NCBI GenBank assembly: GCA_964530955.1
Contig: CAZHCL010000013.1
Location: forward strand, 1-28,336
Length of the DNA: 28,336 nucleotides
DNA from: Candidatus Woesearchaeota archaeon
GTDB taxonomy: Archaea; Nanobdellota; Nanobdellia; Pacearchaeales; GW2011-AR1
Direction: 5' to 3'
In this document: in pieces, positions 467 through 9,577 of the stretch
Position numbering within the stretch: position 1 is the first letter of the stretch
Layout: each line of letters begins with the position of its first letter
Notes under the pieces: generated by a model
Database searches by the model: none
The model's input: only the letters and a program-made list of their open reading frames with translations
Told to the model about the DNA's origin: nothing
Translations under genes and position numbers: made by a program

Positions 467-2161
467 ATGAAGAGGATAGCTATATTTTTACTGCTTTTGG
501 TGTGTGTATTCACTTTAAGTTTTTATTTTACACAGGCAGCGCAGGCTCCTGTACAGACTCAAACTGACAACCCAGCAAATGGTCCTACATCAGGCATTAA
601 TAAGATTGTATCTTTTTGTTCAGACCCAAGCCAAACAATATATTCTCTTTATCAGAATGTGAATTCACACGCTGCAATTTTTAACAGCACAGTTAGTGAT
701 CCCGTTGCGGATGTTTCTGTATGTTATGACTCTCTATTTGGGCGTTCTTCCGCTTCTCCAAATCCTTGGAGCTGCAATGGAGCAAATACTTTATTTTATC
801 TTGACTCTCCTTCAAACTCTCACGCATCTGCAACCCGAGACTCAACTTATAACATACCTGTATGCTATGGAGACCTTGCTTGTGTAATAAATGCTACATG
901 TAGTTCAAGTCAGATAGAAGTAGGTGCTTTGTCTTCAGCAACTAATGCACACGTATCTGTAAATGCACAATCAAGTGGTTATCCTTTAAGGATTTGCTGC
1001 ACTTCTGCTGGACCTTCAGGTCAGGCTACTTGGTCAGATCCAGCTAGCGGAGAAGTTATAACGCAGGCAACTCCTTCAACAATAGTTAATATGAGTGTTG
1101 ACTTTTTCTCCAATGATTTGAATGGAAAAAATCTAGTTCTCTCCGTTTATGACGATGCAGATAATTGGCTTGAAAACTTTTCAACAAATGTACAAGAAAG
1201 TCACGCAAGATATCAGGCAAATATTGATAATTTAATTCCTTCTGGATACCCTCTTGAAAGAAGTATTTATTTCATTGCAAGATACTATGATTCGTCAGGC
1301 AATTTGGGTGTTCAGGTAAAGAGTAACAGCCTAACTTATACTAGTGTAATAAAGACTCTTACTTCGGCTAATTGGACTAACGCGGATCAAGAAACAATAT
1401 ATACTGCTCCATTGGATGCAAATGTTGTTTTGTCTGTTGGAACTAAGGGTTATCCTGCAGGAGATACTGTTAACATAGAAGTATATCAAAAGGGTAGCCC
1501 AGATAGTGTTGATTCAATTCAAAATATTCAAATAGATAATAATGGAAATGCGAATACTCAACAAACCCAATTTGGAGGTCTTGCTGGAAATGCAAATATG
1601 GGCGACCAATATTATTTCCTTGCTTATGATAGTAATGGAGCAAGCATAAGAAGCAATGACTTGACAGTATACAAAAAAGAAACAAATATTCAGGTAGGTT
1701 ACTGTTTTGAGATACTCCAGCCTAACAAAGATGATTGTAATAATGCCGTGCCAATCCATGGAAATCCCATAACTGCTCCTAACTGCAATATACAAAGCAG
1801 TGTTTCATATTGCCAATGGAACGACACAACTAATTTATGTGAAACTAGAACTGATTTCTTTGATACTACACAGACTAATGTAGCTTCTTGTATATCTTCA
1901 GCGAGTAATTCGATAGGCGCCTGTGTAAATGGAGTTAGACAAATATTAGTTGATACTAGATCAAATAACATCGCTTGTTCTGACCCTATAACTTGCAATA
2001 GCTTATGTCCTTCAGGCTCATGCGAGATACCTTGCGGGCAGGCGATTGTCGCTTTGCCTTTCTTCACAAGCATTAATTTAATATTAGTAATTGGATTGTT
2101 AGTAATAATTTATGCAATAATAGAAAGCAGTAAAAGAATAAAGAAAATTTCTAAAAAATAA
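467..2161 (+). CDS. Cys-rich secreted, membrane-anchored surface protein (564 aa)
   Basis: N-terminal Sec-type hydrophobic signal, three N(S/A)H...Y/V..(V/I)C repeats, two similar Ig-like segments, a Cys-rich distal region, and a C-terminal TM helix followed by a Lys/Arg-rich tail. Confidence 0.8.
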   Translation: MKRIAIFLLLLVCVFTLSFYFTQAAQAPVQTQTDNPANGPTSGINKIVSFCSDPSQTIYSLYQNVNSHAAIFNSTVSDPVADVSVCYDSLFGRSSASPNPWSCNGANTLFYLDSPSNSHASATRDSTYNIPVCYGDLACVINATCSSSQIEVGALSSATNAHVSVNAQSSGYPLRICCTSAGPSGQATWSDPASGEVITQATPSTIVNMSVDFFSNDLNGKNLVLSVYDDADNWLENFSTNVQESHARYQANIDNLIPSGYPLERSIYFIARYYDSSGNLGVQVKSNSLTYTSVIKTLTSANWTNADQETIYTAPLDANVVLSVGTKGYPAGDTVNIEVYQKGSPDSVDSIQNIQIDNNGNANTQQTQFGGLAGNANMGDQYYFLAYDSNGASIRSNDLTVYKKETNIQVGYCFEILQPNKDDCNNAVPIHGNPITAPNCNIQSSVSYCQWNDTTNLCETRTDFFDTTQTNVASCISSASNSIGACVNGVRQILVDTRSNNIACSDPITCNSLCPSGSCEIPCGQAIVALPFFTSINLILVIGLLVIIYAIIESSKRIKKISKK

Positions 2162-2162
2162 A

Positions 2163-3074
2163 TTATTGACTTCTGGCTCGGTAGTATCTTGCTGGCGAAT
2201 TAGTTGATGAATTATCTCTAAATGAATAAGGAAGCCACATATTTACGCTTGAAGAATAGGTAGTATTAGTTGCTAAGGGTGTCCAATGCTTTAAATCGCT
2301 TGAAGATTCTAAAATAAACTTTTTATCATTCATACGAGTATCTACAAAAAGAGTTGGTCCTAGTTTTGAGGTGTTAGGTAGGGTGGTTTGATCCATCAAG
2401 ACATTTACTGAATTTGTGAGAGAATTATAATTAAGAACTACTTCTATATGCATAGCTGAACCTGAAGAAGGTTCTAAAGAGCCATTTGTTAGGTAAGCTT
2501 CTGTGCCTGTAACTCTGAAGCATTTGTTTCCTAAAGAGGTATTTGTAGTCATGTTGAATATATAAGCTCCAACTAAGCCCCTAGTACCCTTAGGACCTAT
2601 GGAGGTAGCTACTGCTCTGTCTGCTGGAGAAAGAGAATTTGGTCCTGTCTTGCTTCCTGTCGAATTTGTTTTTGAAGACATTTGATACTGATTGAAAAAA
2701 TCCACCTGTGCCCCAGAAATACCATTTGTAAGATTTATCCACCCGTTATTATTTGTAGAAATAATTGTAGCAAGAGTTATTGCAGGGTCGCTTGGAGGAA
2801 CTAACGTCCACTTTAATTCTTTTATTCCGTTTGTATCTGTGCTTTCTGCATAAACATTTACTTGAATAGAACGATTTGAATTGTTGGCAAAATTTCTAGT
2901 TGTAAATCCATTGCTATTGCCAGTCTCTACACTGAAAATAACGTCAGCACTTGCAGGATTAGAATAAAGAGGAAGACTAGCAGCAGCTATTAGCGGAGCT
3001 AAGCCTATGGCTTTCTTGACTTTCCTTGCTGCTGTGCCTGCTTTTTCAAGCAGATATTCGAGTGTCTTTTTCAT
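2163..3074 (-). CDS. Secreted protein (303 aa) with beta-sandwich-like core and a Verrucomicrobia-like C-terminal module
   Basis: Long basic leader plus hydrophobic segment ending ...NPASA|D. C-terminus is FILESSSDLKHWTPLATNT...FRDNSSTNSPARYYRARSQ. No C-terminal TM helix. Opposite orientation to both neighbours. Confidence 0.75.
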   Translation of the reverse strand: MKKTLEYLLEKAGTAARKVKKAIGLAPLIAAASLPLYSNPASADVIFSVETGNSNGFTTRNFANNSNRSIQVNVYAESTDTNGIKELKWTLVPPSDPAITLATIISTNNNGWINLTNGISGAQVDFFNQYQMSSKTNSTGSKTGPNSLSPADRAVATSIGPKGTRGLVGAYIFNMTTNTSLGNKCFRVTGTEAYLTNGSLEPSSGSAMHIEVVLNYNSLTNSVNVLMDQTTLPNTSKLGPTLFVDTRMNDKKFILESSSDLKHWTPLATNTTYSSSVNMWLPYSFRDNSSTNSPARYYRARSQ

Positions 3075-3253
3075 GTTTTTCTTACCTTATTATGAGCCTA
3101 AACCAATTTATTTAGTTTGCTCTTTAGTGTTATTATTATGTAGTAACAACTATATTTAAACCTTTTTATTGCGCTATCTAGACATGCATTGAAACTATGC
3201 AAAAAGACCTAAATCAGCACTATGTTTTTAAATAAGGCAGGATTAGGACATTA

Positions 3254-5938
3254 ATGAAAAAGGAGAGTGTTTTTGTAATAGCTTTTTGTTTTGCAGTCGT
3301 ATTTTTTGTTGGACTAACTGTTGCTAGTTTTTCCTATTCGGGGAATAATATTCAAGACACCTATGTTGGAGGAGATAATATAACCGGAACAATAAACTTA
3401 AGCCTCAATAGTGAACCTGCAGGTTCTCTTCTTACAAGTAGTGTAGGTAATCAAAGTATACGGCTTGTTGATTTTTTGAATAATAATGGTTTAATTCTTG
3501 GGCAGGACTATAACTGCAGTAGCACTTCTTGTTCTGATATATATTCATCTTCTGGCTCAGCTATTTCTTCAATTTCACTTTTGAATCCTGATGATAAGAA
3601 TATAGGATTCAAAATTACGGGGAGCGGAGTCGAGATTGTTTCTCTCTCCCTTTCTTTGTCCGGAAGTTCAGGACCTTCCTGCTCTCCTGGAGCAGAGGTA
3701 AATTTTCTAGGAAATGATACTAGTCAGTACATGCAAAGTAGAGCGTATGTAAATCAGACCTGTGGCTCAGTTACAAAAGGATGCTACGCTGGTTCAAGTA
3801 GTAATGATTGGGTAAGTCTTGAACAAGGACAATTCTGTGAACAAATGAATCTTTCGGTTGCTCCTGCTTTCAAAGTCGGAGCGCATATAAAGCAAGACTC
3901 TGGGGCAAACGGAGATATAATAATGGAATTATTTGATTCGAACTGGAATTCAAAAGGAACTTGCCATCTTTCTAATCTTACGCAGGGAGTTCAGGATTCC
4001 AATTGTGTTATAGCAGCACCTAATCCTGTTCTTCAGCAAGATTATTTATGTATATCGACTGATGGGCAAGGATATTCAATAGATACTGAAGATTCTGAAC
4101 CTGTGTGCGGAAATGCGGGAACCAACTTTAATGATTTTGTAATAGATTATGATGTCTCTGCTCAACCACTTGAATTTGATTCAACAAATATTGTAATAAA
4201 TGAAAGCACTTATCAACAACTGACTGGAGCCAGTTTTGCGGGAGCAGCAGACTCTTATATTGATCAGGTTTATAATAGAAACTGTAGCAATGCTGGATGC
4301 ATAATTCCATTTGAAGTATTTTCTCAAAATAATCAAAACTTAAACATAACGAATGCAGCAATAACTTTTAGAAAATCAGGAACCGGAACGGGTACATCTC
4401 AAAGAACAGATATTTATCAACTTCAAAAAACAAATTCAACTATAACTTCTCCGTATTTAACTCTTGAATTAGCTAATAGTGGATTAACCATTCCTTTTTC
4501 ATCTACTGCAAAGACCCTCCAGTTATATTTGGGAGGAAAACAGTTACTAAAGTCTGCACTACCGATAGATGTTACTCAAGGATTTACATTTGATGTTGCT
4601 CCAAAAACAATAATAGTTGGAATTAATACTTTGTTTAGTTTAACTAGCAGTGCTAATTTAAGTTCTGTGGCTTGGAACTTTGGAGATGGAACAAGTAATT
4701 CAACTCCTGATGGAAATTCTTTCCATACTTATTTACAACAGGGGCAATTCAACATTGTTGTTCAGGCAACAAGCGAAGCTGGAGCAACAATAACTAAGAA
4801 TTTCACTGTTAATGTTGGTGACGCTCAAACTGCTGCCGATTTACTGATAAAAAGAGATACTGGATATATGGATAATATAAGTTCGGATCTTAATGGATAT
4901 GACTCTTGGATAAGAAACGCTATCTCTGACAAAATTAATTTGAGCAGTATGAACCAGACTCTTTCTCTTGCTAAACAGGAATTCGATTCTGGAAACAATT
5001 ATTCGGATATAGTAAATAATCTTCTTGCTTTGAGCATCCCGCAGGGAATAACCTCTGGAGTTATCGGAAACGTGCCTTTGGAAATAGGATTCAATGGAAT
5101 AAATCCTTCCTATGTCGAGTCTCTTTCAGGAAATAATAATACTTTGACTGCAACTCAACTTGCTGATATTAAACAGAATTTGATAGATTGGAATACGAAT
5201 AATTATAATACTAATGTAAACTATAAGGTTATCTCCGAGCAGACAGAATCTGGATTAATACCTGTTTTTACTTACATAAATATAACTGCTAACTCTAAAA
5301 ATAATACCAATGATAATTACAATTTTTTAATAGACTACCCCTCACAGAGTGTTTTATTTAAGCAAAACTATAACCCGAAGAATATTAACGCAGATTCAAG
5401 CTCTGCGACGGCCATTCCTATTTCGGGAAGCAGTTCCCTTGAATTTTTATTGCCTGGAAGCGTAGATATTTCACAGATTGGGGCGTACATTGCTCCTCCT
5501 TTGAGTGCTCTTGGCGTTGGAAATAATCAGGATATTACTCAAGTACCTGTAAATACTAGACCAAGCACAGGTATCTGGCTTTATATTTGGTTAGCTTTGT
5601 TATTTTTAGTACTGTATGTCGCGCTACAGGAATGGTACAAGAGGAGATATGAATCTTCCTTATTTAGAAACAAGGATGATTTGTATAACCTAATTAATTT
5701 TATATTTAATTCTAGAATATCTGGACTTAGAGATGATGACATAAGAAATAAGCTTTCTGGATATAATTGGAGAGGTGAGCAGTTAAGCTATGCATTCAGA
5801 AAGATAGATGGAAAAAGGACTGGAATGTGGGAAATACCTATATTCAAGTTCATTGAAAACAGAAAAGTTAAAGCAGAGATACAAAAAAGGCAGGAGCAAA
5901 ATATGAATAACGGAAGGTTTATTAAAACACAGTATTAA
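3254..5938 (+). CDS. Large PKD-domain surface/S-layer-like protein (894 aa) with C-terminal TM and cytoplasmic domain
   Basis: Signal peptide; PKD signature VAWNFGDGT...HTY...G.F.I.V; TM IWLYIWLALLFLVLYVAL; ~100-aa charged cytoplasmic tail. Confidence 0.8.
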   Translation: MKKESVFVIAFCFAVVFFVGLTVASFSYSGNNIQDTYVGGDNITGTINLSLNSEPAGSLLTSSVGNQSIRLVDFLNNNGLILGQDYNCSSTSCSDIYSSSGSAISSISLLNPDDKNIGFKITGSGVEIVSLSLSLSGSSGPSCSPGAEVNFLGNDTSQYMQSRAYVNQTCGSVTKGCYAGSSSNDWVSLEQGQFCEQMNLSVAPAFKVGAHIKQDSGANGDIIMELFDSNWNSKGTCHLSNLTQGVQDSNCVIAAPNPVLQQDYLCISTDGQGYSIDTEDSEPVCGNAGTNFNDFVIDYDVSAQPLEFDSTNIVINESTYQQLTGASFAGAADSYIDQVYNRNCSNAGCIIPFEVFSQNNQNLNITNAAITFRKSGTGTGTSQRTDIYQLQKTNSTITSPYLTLELANSGLTIPFSSTAKTLQLYLGGKQLLKSALPIDVTQGFTFDVAPKTIIVGINTLFSLTSSANLSSVAWNFGDGTSNSTPDGNSFHTYLQQGQFNIVVQATSEAGATITKNFTVNVGDAQTAADLLIKRDTGYMDNISSDLNGYDSWIRNAISDKINLSSMNQTLSLAKQEFDSGNNYSDIVNNLLALSIPQGITSGVIGNVPLEIGFNGINPSYVESLSGNNNTLTATQLADIKQNLIDWNTNNYNTNVNYKVISEQTESGLIPVFTYINITANSKNNTNDNYNFLIDYPSQSVLFKQNYNPKNINADSSSATAIPISGSSSLEFLLPGSVDISQIGAYIAPPLSALGVGNNQDITQVPVNTRPSTGIWLYIWLALLFLVLYVALQEWYKRRYESSLFRNKDDLYNLINFIFNSRISGLRDDDIRNKLSGYNWRGEQLSYAFRKIDGKRTGMWEIPIFKFIENRKVKAEIQKRQEQNMNNGRFIKTQY

Positions 5939-5946
5939 CAAATAAA

Positions 5947-6585
5947 ATGCTTAAAATAATTAGAGATTTTTCGAAGAGAATGCTCAGGGCTCTTTTCAAG
6001 AAAAAAGAAAATATAAAAATAGGTTTTTACGGACCTCCCAACGCTGGGAAGACCTCTCTTGCTAATAGAATATGCAAAGATTGGACTGGCGAAGAGATAG
6101 GGATAGTCAGTAAAATTCCCCATGAAACTAGACATGTTCAATTTAAAGAAAAAGTTGAGATAAAACATAAAGGGAAGACCTTGACTTTCAAACTCGTTGA
6201 CACTCCAGGTATCGCCACTAAAATAGATTATGAAGAATTTATAACTTTTGGATTGAAAAAGACCGATGCTAAAAAAAGAGCTAAGGAAGCTACTCAGGGA
6301 ATAATCGAAAGCATTCAATGGCTTGAGGATATGGATGCAATTGTCGTTGTCCTTGATGCAAGCGAGAATCCCTATTCACAGGTGAATATTACAATAATAG
6401 GGAACATAGTTGCAAGAAAAATACCTGTATTAATAGTTGCTAACAAGATAGATTTGAAAAAAGCAGATATAAAGAAAGTTGAGGCAGCATTTCCAGAATA
6501 TGATGTAATAGGAATTTCCGCAAAGGATGGAATTAATATCGAAGAATTTTATGAGTCATTATTTAAACTTGCTAAGAAAGCGTAA
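5947..6585 (+). CDS. oapA: Small P-loop GTPase (Era/EngB-like; haloarchaeal OapA-type)
   Basis: G1 GPPNAGKT, G2 HETR, G3 DTPG, G4 NKID, G5 ISAK. Followed by a DUF2073-like gene, with a Zn-ribbon gene nearby. The symbol refers to the archaeal origin-associated protein, not the bacterial OLE-RNA OapA. Confidence 0.85.
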   Translation: MLKIIRDFSKRMLRALFKKKENIKIGFYGPPNAGKTSLANRICKDWTGEEIGIVSKIPHETRHVQFKEKVEIKHKGKTLTFKLVDTPGIATKIDYEEFITFGLKKTDAKKRAKEATQGIIESIQWLEDMDAIVVVLDASENPYSQVNITIIGNIVARKIPVLIVANKIDLKKADIKKVEAAFPEYDVIGISAKDGINIEEFYESLFKLAKKA

Positions 6586-6595
6586 AAAATAAAAA

Positions 6596-6985
6596 ATGAA
6601 AGATAAAAAATTGAGTGGATTGAGCCTACAGGTTATTCCATTCGCAGAAATAGAAAAGATGAGTATCAATGAAAGAGTAAAGAAAATACTTGGACTTGTC
6701 CTTGGAAATAGGATAGTTATTATTCATGGAAGATTACGCTCTGAAGAAGAGGCAAGACTTATTGAAGATACTATGGCAATGGTAGATCATGTTAAAGGAT
6801 TCAAGGGAATTGAGCTTGCAGTCATTGAACCAAATACAAAAGATAAAAGTATGTTTGATAAAATGAAATATAATATTGCAAAATCTCTTGTTGGAGACAG
6901 CGCTGCTTTGACAGTAATAGGTCCGAGTTCTATTGTAAAGGAAATAAGAAGAGATCCTAAGAAAATAGAACTACTTCTAAGCTAA
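6596..6985 (+). CDS. oapB: DUF2073-family protein (OapB-type)
   Basis: Recognised motifs ...ILGLVLGNRIVIIHGRLRSEEEARLIEDTM...GIEL...LTVIGP..IVKEIRRDP; lies directly after the GTPase. Confidence 0.7.
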   Translation: MKDKKLSGLSLQVIPFAEIEKMSINERVKKILGLVLGNRIVIIHGRLRSEEEARLIEDTMAMVDHVKGFKGIELAVIEPNTKDKSMFDKMKYNIAKSLVGDSAALTVIGPSSIVKEIRRDPKKIELLLS

Positions 6986-7052: not shown

Positions 7053-8681
7053 ATGAAATTCGAGGTGGATTTGGGAAAGAAGTATTTGTTTGGTCTTATT
7101 GTCGTTATGATTATTTTTCTTGGAGTTTTAGGAGTATATGCTTATGATAATGCAATTCCAAATCCAGGTCATGGCGGAGACCAAGTTTGGGTCACGACTC
7201 CTGATGGTAATGAAATGACTTTGCAAGATGCAATCGATATGGGTGCCTTCACTCCAATAACTCCTTCGGTTGGCGGAGATGGATTGCCTGCTGGCTCGAC
7301 GATAGATTTGGGAGTTATGGGTGCTGGAGGTGGTTCTGTATGCGCTTTAGTAAAATTGAATACTACTGGTACTGGAATAAAATGCTCTGGAGCTAATACT
7401 TATGGACAACTTGGAGTAGGAGATGTTTCAAGAAGACTTAACTTTAAGGCACTCAATCTTAATGTAAGTAATGCCGTTCAAATATCTACTTATGGTGATT
7501 TCAATTTTGCCCTTCTTAGCGATGGGGCTGCTTTGGGCTGGGGGTATAATGGTTATGGACAGTTGGGTACTGGCGGTACTGCCAATGCATTAATACCTCA
7601 CCCTGTTTTAGGGTCTACAGGTCAGCCATTAACGGGAATTATAAAGTTTGCAGAAGGAAGGCCGTCAAGCGGTTATCAATTTGTATGTCTTATTCTTAAT
7701 AATGGACATGTAAAGTGTAGTGGGTATAATGGTTATGGACAGTTGGGTAATGGAAAAACAACTTCTAGTAAGAATTTTAGTGATGATGTAGTTGGGATAG
7801 CAAATGCGCGCGATGTTAAAATTGGAGGTCATGCTTCTGGAGGATTTGCTTGTGCTTTATTGCCTGACTCTGTTAAGTGCTGGGGGTATAATGGTTATGG
7901 ACAGTTGGGTAATGGAAAGACGGTTTCTAATTCTACTCCGGTTTCAGTTCTGAATTTGCCTGGAAACTGGAATACTAACTTACAAATATGGAATACTAGT
8001 GTCACTGATGTAGAATTGGCAAATGATGATTACGGCAGTGCTTATGCTATAACTGCACAAGGAGACCTTTATGCATGGGGATATAATGGTTATGGACAGT
8101 TGGGTACTGGGAATACTACTAGTACATCTACCCCTAATAAGCCCCTCATACTTGGATCGGCAAATGGAAGACCAGTCAAAGCATTAAGAACAATCGGTGC
8201 TGGTGCGACTGACACTGTTTGCGCGATAACTGGGGTAGGTACAAACTCAGCTGATGGCGATGTCTATTGCTGGGGGTATAATGGTGGAGGTTCGGCAGGA
8301 CAGGGAACCACAGCTTCTCCAATAAAAACACCTACGAAGGTAGCTACTCTTTCAAGTGTCGCCGACATTGAAGGATTTGGCTGGGGTAATTACAATACTT
8401 TCTGTGCGTTGACTACTAATGGAAAAGTGTGGTGCTGGGGGTATAATGGTTATGGGCAAACAGGAATAGGTAGCACGACAACTCCTCAAACAACTCCTGT
8501 GAATATACAGTTTGGTAATGTGGTTACTAATATTACTATGTCTGGCTATGGAAACATAGGATTTGGTTGCGCGACTTTAGCTGATAATAACGTTAAGTGC
8601 TGGGGGTATAATGCTAATGGTGGACTGGGAACTGGAGATACTTTGAATGTTCTTTACCCAACACAACCACAAGCACCTTAA
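7053..8681 (+). CDS. RCC1/BLIP-II-like beta-propeller surface protein (542 aa)
   Basis: N-terminal signal/TM. About seven to eight (C/A)WG(Y)NxxGQLG repeats with V..I..G...(F/T)C.L...G.V spacing. Confidence 0.9.
   Translation: MKFEVDLGKKYLFGLIVVMIIFLGVLGVYAYDNAIPNPGHGGDQVWVTTPDGNEMTLQDAIDMGAFTPITPSVGGDGLPAGSTIDLGVMGAGGGSVCALVKLNTTGTGIKCSGANTYGQLGVGDVSRRLNFKALNLNVSNAVQISTYGDFNFALLSDGAALGWGYNGYGQLGTGGTANALIPHPVLGSTGQPLTGIIKFAEGRPSSGYQFVCLILNNGHVKCSGYNGYGQLGNGKTTSSKNFSDDVVGIANARDVKIGGHASGGFACALLPDSVKCWGYNGYGQLGNGKTVSNSTPVSVLNLPGNWNTNLQIWNTSVTDVELANDDYGSAYAITAQGDLYAWGYNGYGQLGTGNTTSTSTPNKPLILGSANGRPVKALRTIGAGATDTVCAITGVGTNSADGDVYCWGYNGGGSAGQGTTASPIKTPTKVATLSSVADIEGFGWGNYNTFCALTTNGKVWCWGYNGYGQTGIGSTTTPQTTPVNIQFGNVVTNITMSGYGNIGFGCATLADNNVKCWGYNANGGLGTGDTLNVLYPTQPQAP
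7542..8106 (+). repeat. Dispersed 28-bp intragenic direct repeats GGGTATAATGGTTATGGACAGTTGGGTA
   Basis: Exact copies at 7542, 7722 and 7884, and a one-mismatch copy around 8079-8106. Partial copies occur near 8272, 8437 and 8602. Confidence 0.9.
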
Positions 8682-9172: not shown

Positions 9173-9577
9173 ATGCCATACAAATGTGTTCATTGCTCGC
9201 AAATATTCAAAGACGGCTCGGAAGAATTGATTACAGGATGTACAAATTGCAGGAGTAAATTTTTCTTTTTCATAAAAGAAGAAAAACTGAAGGAAATGGC
9301 TGAGAGGGGAGAGCTTGAGCCTAAATTAAGCGATAGTGAAAAGAAACAGATAGAAGAGGATATAAGAGACATTGTAGGGCTTGAAGATGACAATGAAACT
9401 CCCGTATTTCTCGATTTTGAAAGCATTAAAGTAATGAAGCCAGGAAAATATTTACTTGATTTGCAGAAACTTTTCTCTATGGACAAGCCAAGAGTTTATC
9501 AGATTGAAAATGGAAAATATATAGTTGATTTGACAAAACCTTTTAAGCTGACCAAAAAAGAAGGCTCGGCAGATTAA
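9173..9577 (+). CDS. oapC: Zn-ribbon protein (DUF2072/OapC-type)
   Basis: MPYKCVHC...GCTNC.SKFFFF at the N-terminus and ESIKVMKPGKYLLDLQKLF downstream, typical of the family linked to the GTPase and DUF2073. Confidence 0.75.
   Translation: MPYKCVHCSQIFKDGSEELITGCTNCRSKFFFFIKEEKLKEMAERGELEPKLSDSEKKQIEEDIRDIVGLEDDNETPVFLDFESIKVMKPGKYLLDLQKLFSMDKPRVYQIENGKYIVDLTKPFKLTKKEGSAD

Follow-up and report, generated by a model that had tools for sequence, protein, structure and literature searches.

The window, a stretch of 28,336 nucleotides from contig CAZHCL010000013.1 of a Candidatus Woesearchaeota archaeon, bears on its minus strand, at positions 2163-3074, an open reading frame (ORF) for a protein of 303 amino acids that matches the one quoted in a first-pass annotation of this DNA. 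The protein is made of three parts: a leader followed by a signal peptide, a core with a predicted cohesin fold, and a C-terminal β module of about 80 amino acids, called here the FYR module, which is homologous to a module located at the C-termini of exported proteins of Verrucomicrobiota. The analysis indicates that the protein is probably a secreted two-domain adaptor devoid of its own anchor, in which an extended Sec signal peptide and a cohesin-fold domain precede an FYR module that would have been captured once, long ago, from Verrucomicrobiota. The parts of the protein are located as follows:

2166..2405, minus strand: residues 224-303, C-terminal FYR module (FILESSSDLKHWTPLATN...SFRD...NSPARYYRARSQ), a small fn3/Ig-like β-sandwich homologous to the Verrucomicrobiota C-terminal module
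2430..2945, minus strand: residues 44-215, cohesin-fold β-sandwich core, delimited from the AlphaFold2 (AF2) model with VIA-align and Foldseek
2946..3011, minus strand: residues 22-43, hydrophobic core of the signal peptide and putative ASA↓DV cleavage site of signal-peptidase-I type, located by a hydropathy scan
3012..3074, minus strand: residues 1-21, conserved basic amphipathic leader MKKTLEYLLEKAGTAARKVKK, kept in most of the 22 family members

The FYR module and its homologs

An exhaustive HMMER (phmmer) search against 1.84 billion representatives retrieved 37 matches. About 22 of them are full-length homologs of 270-330 amino acids with 25-48% identity, which have in common the leader, an AxA↓(D/E)V site, the core motifs and the same C-terminal tail, core and tail being a single uninterrupted ORF across these 22 diverged proteins. 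The remaining matches cover residues ~250-302 only, with E-values from 1e-8 to 1e-3, and they correspond to proteins in which a module of ~65-80 residues is present once or in tandem, up to four times, the last copy ending the protein. A word-index protein search retrieved only the protein itself, and one with residues 236-303 of the tail at the 'longer' lengths gave no match. The module follows the pattern V-(I/V)-E-A-S-(T/S)-D-L-x-x-W-x-P...T-N...F-x-D...N-x-P-x-R-F-Y-R. The tail of the window protein is 38-42% identical to the bacterial modules, residues S37, D39, L40, W43, T48, D66, R75, Y77 and R78 being invariant, and in a tblastn comparison it matched a Verrucomicrobiia locus with an E-value of 2e-12. 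The archaeal protein ends YYR-ARSQ, its module being terminal as in the bacteria. Hence the archaeal and the bacterial modules share the invariant S-DL--W, TN, D and R-(F/Y)-Y-R residues, the extreme C-terminal position and a predicted fold as a small β sandwich. They differ in the loop between the TN strand and the F-D strand, which is longer in the archaeal copy (YSSSVNMWLPYS), in the GC content of the carrier, which is 35% in the archaeon, and in the cores, since cohesin-like or lamin-tail domain (LTD) cores were not seen with the module in the four Verrucomicrobial genomes searched.

Neither Pfam nor NCBIfam has a model that matches the protein or its tail, or one that covers the bacterial module. 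The bacterial proteins with tandem modules gave only weak partial matches to discoidin and DUF3999 models, caused by the S-DL--W motif. Likewise, neither the protein nor the tail matched the models for C-terminal domains (CTDs) of the type IX secretion system (T9SS) in NCBIfam or Pfam (TIGR04183/Por_Secre_tail). The literature searched yielded no paper describing the module and nothing pertinent on cohesin-dockerin pairs of DPANN archaea. A bacterial C-terminal module that lacks a Pfam or NCBIfam model and is carried by 14-91 secreted proteins per genome, as counted in four genomes, merits a description of its own.

Distribution of the module and its use in bacteria

The occurrence of the module was scanned by pattern and tblastn in one genome for each of 185,579 species. 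From the 49 loci found, 40 belong to Verrucomicrobiota, labelled as Verrucomicrobiia, Limisphaerales, Limisphaera, Pedosphaera, Prosthecobacter or Verrucomicrobiales, one to Kiritimatiellota and a few to oddly labelled bins; none is archaeal. Four Verrucomicrobial genomes contain 91, 14, 55 and 56 module matches, respectively. In the archaeal phylum, of which 401 genomes (mostly ≥90% complete) were scanned, the window's genome alone matches, plus one marginal match of 27 residues. The named public proteins with the module come from Verrucomicrobiia or Pedosphaera, and the look-alikes found by features and structure in the ESM Atlas, to be taken as a lead only, are all from Verrucomicrobiota. 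The oddly labelled loci are on contigs of metagenome-assembled genomes (L018, L041, L044, L049, L027, L052) assigned to Klebsiella, Bifidobacteriaceae, Pseudomonadales, Acidoferrum and Baltobacteraceae. These contigs have 52-66% GC and their modules nest among the Verrucomicrobial ones in the module tree; the bins are probably mislabelled or mixed and do not represent real occurrences in those taxa.

In the bacteria the position of the module is very constant, the chain ending 0-8 residues past the FYR motif in 46 of the 49 loci and in 75 of 80 long proteins. The cargo is diverse and includes S8 peptidases, GalA β-galactosidases, GH25 lysozyme, GH5 endoglucanase, delta-60 propellers, LVIVD, Ig, PKD, Cna and RCC1 domains, and GloVer-repeat proteins, which NCBI files as 'choice-of-anchor'. 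The label TIGR03803, given by JGI, was considered as a name for the tail and rejected, as this model matches the N-terminal GloVer repeats instead. By analogy with other terminal domains, the module seems to behave in Verrucomicrobiota like a lineage-specific anchor or sorting domain. It resembles the choice-of-anchor families (PEP-CTERM/exosortase, T9SS CTD, LPXTG; TIGR03803, TIGR04312) in being terminal on many unrelated cargos, in reaching dozens of copies per genome, in being restricted to a lineage and in alternating with a PEP-CTERM-like tail on one core family. Unlike PEP-CTERM and LPXTG signals, the FYR module is without a transmembrane helix and without a basic cluster, and unlike the curated sorting domains it matches no hidden Markov model (HMM) and occurs in tandem arrays. 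No cognate processing machinery was found for it, and we know of none.

Capture of a module, not of a gene

A full-length profile run against the four Verrucomicrobial genomes matched positions ~220-290 only and never the core, which indicates that a module was captured and not a gene. In the archaeal family the core was found in at least 8 of the 191 genera (401 genomes), and the tail in 2 of the 191, namely the window's genus (6 of its 9 genomes) and that of G716, where its forms are degenerate and extended at the C-terminus. The tail is also carried, in the window's genus, by a second family, in which a signal peptide and a lamin-tail domain (Pfam LTD, E 4e-14) precede it; its members, corresponding to P0065, P0095 and P0097 in public data, are found at:

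L076:1492-2241, minus strand: LTD-plus-tail protein
L077:943-1680, plus strand: LTD-plus-tail protein

The transfer from Verrucomicrobia of the whole gene, cohesin core and tail in one piece, is very unlikely. It could find some backing in P0004 and P0014, two family members without the archaeal-type leader, the second of which has an N-terminus resembling that of a higher-GC organism; however, four Verrucomicrobial genomes with 14-91 copies of the tail gave no match into the core, and core-only relatives are distributed across several genera of the archaeal family, beside dockerin genes.

The composition of the tail-coding DNA (35.8% GC, and 25.6% GC at third codon positions, GC3) is that of the core and of the neighbouring genes, while the bacterial module loci have 46-67% GC. 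The simplest history, as far as composition can tell, would be an old transfer followed by full amelioration of the tail-coding DNA. The foreign look of the tail, and nothing else, could be taken as a sign of an assembly chimera or of bacterial contamination of the archaeal bin. In three genus-mates (L002, L003, L067) and in a JGI metagenome contig (L080), however, an ortholog of the gene lies in the equivalent place, flanked by homologs of the two neighbouring surface-protein genes, so that this arrangement is present on five independent contigs or genomes; the scan of JGI metagenomes was made with a tighter alignment (A5) and gave one locus. In addition, the contig carries archaeal core genes, the tail does not differ from the host genes in GC and GC3, and core and tail are one ORF in the 22 diverged homologs. 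Because of the synteny and of the composition of the tail, equal to that of core and neighbours, misassembly and contamination are excluded for practical purposes.

The cross-domain capture of the module is supported by these results, and Verrucomicrobiota are well supported as its donor; as a host of the archaeon they are only a lead. The first-pass annotation had already read the motif of the tail, had linked it to Verrucomicrobia of Pedosphaera/Limisphaera type as a feature not usual in archaea, and had proposed host-tag mimicry or a cross-domain capture, within a modular system of tails, asking for misassembly to be checked. The motif holds in the alignment with the bacterial modules, the link agrees with the 40 of 49 loci and with the near absence of the module from other archaea, the capture is in keeping with the tail being the only part matched in Verrucomicrobial genomes, and modularity is seen in both directions, as the core bears several tails in sister genera and the tail is present on LTD proteins. 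No misassembly was indicated.

According to this history, the ancestor of the archaeal genus would have taken the FYR module from Verrucomicrobiota-like bacteria in one old transfer, and the captured module would have been fused to native secreted cores and then shuffled within the lineage, onto at least two kinds of core, the cohesin-like and the lamin-tail domain. It would be a clean case of domain capture, in which a single domain passed from bacteria to DPANN archaea was reused on two archaeal surface-protein families.

Some other tail-like sequences were found in the archaea. In the genus-mate G784, a degenerate tail-like ORF (L067:1107-1355(+); VQLQPFSDLRNW...FDFLDFD...PGFYRP, E 0.0014) is found immediately upstream of the full-length ortholog; it may be what is left of a tandem copy, or of an older host gene. 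In G716, of the other genus, tail variants without the tryptophan context (QRSLGDVLGPW/QRSTNDANGYY) are located at L074:1423-1722(+), L078:1507-2250(+) and L078:619-816(+), with a C-terminal extension that ends ...ENK(T/A)GQ after the FYR motif, and an in-frame TGA breaks one of the cohesin-like copies. Toxin-antitoxin-like and ATPase genes abound at the G716 locus, an indication that the region is mobile or in decay.

The cohesin-fold core

A model of the protein was built with AF2 on the 22-sequence alignment (pLDDT 84.9, pTM 0.80). In this model, residues ~41-219 superimpose on the cohesin 6kgc_A with a VIA-align Z-score of 13.8 and a root-mean-square deviation of 2.5 Å over 140/144 residues. 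The top 14 rows of the VIA-align comparison are all cohesins, the archaeal 2xdh included, and the best Foldseek matches are also cohesins (TMt 0.68-0.73). The predicted structure is the nine-stranded flattened β-sandwich, or jelly-roll, of ~140 residues that characterizes the cohesin fold. The likeness to the cohesins of Archaeoglobus fulgidus (2xdh), C. perfringens (2jh2, 2vo8) and C. acetobutylicum (CaCohA2, 6kgc) extends to the fold of the whole domain and to its being part of a protein with a secretion signal.

The gene neighbourhood in other genera of the archaeal family points in the same direction. There, core-only homologs of 200-290 amino acids are encoded directly after giant proteins that end in a dockerin (L004-L008, L071-L073, L075), the terminal dockerin of these proteins scoring 30.2 bits with the Dockerin_1 model, whose cut-off is 22.9. 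These dockerin-adjacent genes support a cohesin-like role of the core, and from the modelled fold it may be expected that the core of the window protein binds a dockerin-type partner.

Choice of anchor on the archaeal core

In the sister genera, the cohesin-like cores end in several ways. Three loci (L007:1465-2325(+), L071:1375-2520(+), L073:264-1148(-)) have a PEP-CTERM-like end, composed of (I/V)PEP(T/S)T (IPEPTT/VPEPST), a hydrophobic stretch and basic residues, which reaches 13.9-19.2 bits with Pfam, where the cut-off is 20.7. Other cores end in a dockerin (L008, L073), in a short Cys-containing sequence (L004, L072) or in nothing else (L005). As to the arrangement of these proteins, L071 shows two cohesin-like cores, and core, dockerin and PEP-CTERM-like end occur together in L073. 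The same core thus shows a "choice-of-anchor" behaviour across sister genera, and modular anchor choice is supported. The window protein itself has neither a PEP-CTERM motif (PF07589, TIGR02595) nor a C-terminal hydrophobic segment. Two points raised in the first-pass annotation stood in part. It had mentioned DPANN proteins combining the MKKTLE leader and cohesin-like cores with PEP-CTERM tails: such tails exist, at the three loci given above, while the MKKTLE leader is absent there. It had also stated that its reading would be refuted if homologs of the core always carried the same tail; all the 22 close homologs do so, which at that level counts against the reading, and the sister-genus cores differ.

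Homologs of exosortase/archaeosortase (PF09721) are present in the archaeal family, in 9 of 201 genomes above the cut-off and in 21 of 201 at E ≤ 1e-3; some of them are fusions of 720-745 amino acids. As the family has these enzymes of its own, the PEP-CTERM-like tails need no foreign machinery. The occurrence of such tails without a sortase had been considered as a support for mimicry of bacterial tags, and it was rejected on account of these homologs. No exosortase/archaeosortase (PF09721) and no sortase-type enzyme was found in the window's genome (G000, 83% complete) or in the genus-mate G784.

The FYR module would therefore, in the adaptor interpretation, fill the slot that is used in sister genera by a PEP-CTERM-like anchor, by a dockerin or by nothing. 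Anchoring scaffoldins of cellulosomes consist of cohesin plus a cell-surface anchoring module, and the window protein, as far as its predicted structure goes, has a similar layout of cohesin and C-terminal anchoring-type module. From the place of the module in the anchor slot of the core family, an anchoring scaffoldin is the most likely model for how the protein works. A partner protein, of dockerin type or other, would be held by the cohesin end, and the complex would be attached by the FYR end to a surface, either the envelope of the archaeon itself or that of a cell nearby. The occupied slot, the terminal position of the module on bacterial exoproteins and the lack of any other anchor fit this arrangement, the anchoring role of the tail being suggested by analogy. 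The differences from the known cohesin/scaffoldin systems are that the core has no sequence similarity to Pfam or PDB cohesins and no dockerin was found in the window's genome, that the C-terminal module is not SLH, sortase-type or another known anchor, and that the signal peptide has a conserved N-terminal extension.

Points against the adaptor interpretation and other readings of the tail

A number of results weigh against this interpretation, and they concern the core, the history of the module and the role of the tail. Regarding the core, the Pfam Cohesin model (PF00963) matched neither the window protein at E ≤ 1 nor seven core relatives at E ≤ 0.1, and the A1 profile matched no PDB sequence at E ≤ 10. 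The cohesin assignment is based on the predicted fold and on the gene neighbourhood in other genera; given the lack of sequence matches to Pfam Cohesin or PDB, the core is described as cohesin-fold and is not placed in PF00963. Searches of the window's genome, 83% complete, by PF00404, by regular expression and by tblastn with the sister-genus dockerin proteins gave no dockerin. A dockerin is present elsewhere in the genome of three of five genus-mates, although in a different kind of protein and not adjacent to the core gene. In one of these (L081, G784:C8:42800-46600) the dockerin lies in the middle of a protein of ~940 amino acids, whereas in the sister-genus giants it is C-terminal; no counterpart of the L081 protein was found in the window's genome.

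Regarding the history, most metagenomic members of the family (P0003-P0030) were assigned to archaea by their architecture alone, while for P0002, P0006-like, P0011, P0065 and P0095 there is a link to archaeal genomes or to syntenic contigs. The patterns used in the taxon scan were derived partly from Verrucomicrobial sequence and may bias the taxon counts. The module tree (103 modules, 76 columns) is unrooted and has weak support (SH-aLRT 78); in it, 26 of the 28 archaeal tails, those borne by LTD proteins included, fall on one side of a branch, and a single archaeal clade was not rejected by the approximately unbiased test (p 0.67), the constrained tree being better by 12.5 log-likelihood units. 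Since the tree is unrooted, the direction of the transfer is read from the distribution, and both the direction and the single event are presumed. An unrooted tree would also leave room for no transfer at all, the module being ancient and shared by descent, or the motif convergent. This is most improbable, since a module inherited by descent would hardly be limited to a marginal match in 1 of 400 other genomes of the phylum and to 2 of 191 genera of the family, while several Verrucomicrobial orders have dozens of copies per genome; and convergence is made unlikely by the 38-42% identity along the entire module and by its shared invariant residues.

Regarding the tail, its model in isolation (pLDDT 73.5) is a generic fn3/Ig sandwich, with a best Z-score of 6.2 and many fn3 domains at 5-6, and Foldseek gave nothing below E 0.06 with it. 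T9SS CTDs are also small Ig-like sandwiches, and the match of the tail-only model to the C-terminal region of PorU (6za2_B), at a Z-score of 5.6, is within the generic fn3/Ig range of 5-6.2 and not discriminating. Moreover, tandem arrays of two to four copies of the module occur, and a structural or binding domain fits them better than a cleaved sorting signal. Hence the tail could be a structural fn3/Ig-like spacer, or a stabilising domain, acquired from bacteria without an anchoring or targeting role, as would agree with the generic fold, the tandem arrays and the pTM of 0.80 of the full-length model, which suggests that the tail packs against the core. We regard it as unlikely, however: for a spacer, the extreme C-terminal position in 46 of 49 and 75 of 80 cases, 0-8 residues after the conserved R-F-Y-R, is unexpected, and the module replaces known anchors both in the archaeal core family and in the 'choice-of-anchor' GloVer proteins. 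Should the module be merely structural, the finding would reduce to an ordinary old horizontal gene transfer.

The near-exclusive occurrence of the module in Verrucomicrobiota, at the ends of their exoproteins, raises a further reading, that of host-tag mimicry or docking, in which the FYR module would be recognised by a component of the Verrucomicrobial envelope or sorting machinery and the archaeon would be a bacterial episymbiont whose cohesin and LTD proteins are bound or displayed by its host. A protein of 303 amino acids without a membrane anchor of its own, in an archaeon whose genome, like that of G784, yielded no sortase-type enzyme, would suit such a role; the module, kept on two archaeal families over a long divergence (25-48% identity), must be under selection; and it remains to be seen whether DPANN archaea have bacterial hosts (Castelle et al. 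2021, PMC8204110). Nevertheless, the cultivated DPANN co-cultures that have been listed have archaeal hosts (Dombrowski et al. 2019, PMC6349945), an event old enough for full amelioration need not reflect the present partner, an old transfer requires a shared habitat only, and the PEP-CTERM-like tails are explained by the family's own exosortase/archaeosortase homologs. Docking is rather doubtful. The module names in any case a candidate partner clade, Verrucomicrobiota of Pedosphaera/Limisphaerales type, together with a probe of 80 residues. In the boldest form of this reading, FYR might be the envelope-attachment or sorting handle of an undescribed surface-display system of Verrucomicrobiota, captured by the DPANN genus to plug its cohesin and LTD proteins onto Verrucomicrobial cells. 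We give this idea quite a low probability; if it were true, no earlier archaeal episymbiont would have had a bacterial host and a defined docking tag at the molecular level.

Leader and signal peptide

The adaptor would reach the cell exterior through its N-terminal region. This has the layout of a Sec signal peptide, with a basic n-region, an h-region of 12-15 residues (maximum of 2.15 at residue 22 on the Kyte-Doolittle (KD) scale with an 11-residue window, KD-11) and an AxA↓(D/E)V site conserved in the family. The sole hydrophobic stretch of the protein comprises residues ~19-40 (KD-19 maximum 1.26), followed by ASA↓DV, and the hydropathy scan detected no C-terminal transmembrane segment in the 303 amino acids. 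From these features the protein is presumably secreted and its signal peptide cleaved. The leader preceding it has the pattern M-(K/R)-K-T-L-E-x-L-x-x-K-A-K, retained by most of the 22 homologs (alignment A1, columns 1-60), which indicates that it is translated, and residues 5-20 are predicted by AF2 as a helix with low pLDDT. No other protein of the window's genome was matched by an HMM of the leader. The leader is also absent from the LTD-plus-tail family and from the sister-genus cohesin-like proteins, and it is reminiscent of extended signal peptides.

The gene in its genomic context

The gene runs opposite to both flanking surface-protein genes, 467-2161(+) and 3254-5938(+). The elements around it are:

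3153..3160, minus strand: TATA-like box TTTAAATA, 79 nucleotides upstream of the ATG, in the divergent intergenic region of 179 bp; read from the sequence, with a putative function
3084..3087, minus strand: AGGT, a putative Shine-Dalgarno-like element, 10-13 nucleotides upstream of the ATG, read likewise
467..2161, plus strand: syntenic neighbour, given as context only, coding for a Cys-rich surface protein of 564 amino acids with a C-terminal transmembrane anchor; homologs beside the orthologs in L002, L003, L067 and L080
3254..5938, plus strand: syntenic neighbour coding for a PKD-domain surface protein of 894 amino acids with a transmembrane segment (Pfam PKD_4 and PKD); homologs beside the orthologs in L003, L067 and L080

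Both neighbour proteins have strong transmembrane anchors, with KD-19 values above 2.5. What the first-pass annotation had described for the gene and the rest of its product, that is, an inverted orientation inside a co-oriented surface-protein cluster, a long basic leader before the signal, a β-rich, cohesin-like core and the lack of a transmembrane anchor, was found as stated: the gene is on the strand opposite to both neighbours, the leader is conserved in most of the 22 homologs, the AF2 model has the cohesin fold and the only hydrophobic stretch is that of the signal peptide.

The assembly to which the window belongs has 761 kb in 26 contigs, with 35% GC. The contig codes for OapB, OapC, an Obg-like GTPase, FttA/aCPSF1, a proteasome subunit, Rad50/Mre11, the CCA-adding enzyme of archaeal type and TrmB, and the source genome is that of a DPANN-type (Woesearchaeota-type) archaeon. 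A gene at 7053-8681(+) codes for a protein of 542 amino acids with an N-terminal transmembrane or signal segment and seven RCC1 repeats (RLD propeller, E 6e-55), and lies in a stretch whose GC, 42-44%, exceeds that of the remaining contig. In Verrucomicrobia the FYR module is carried by RCC1 propellers too; this archaeal protein is without such a tail. Just downstream of the PKD surface-protein gene are the genes for a GTPase (MMR_HSR1), OapB and OapC (5947-6985(+), 9173-9577(+)), and the location of the origin-associated OapB and OapC beside it suggests that a replication origin may be near.

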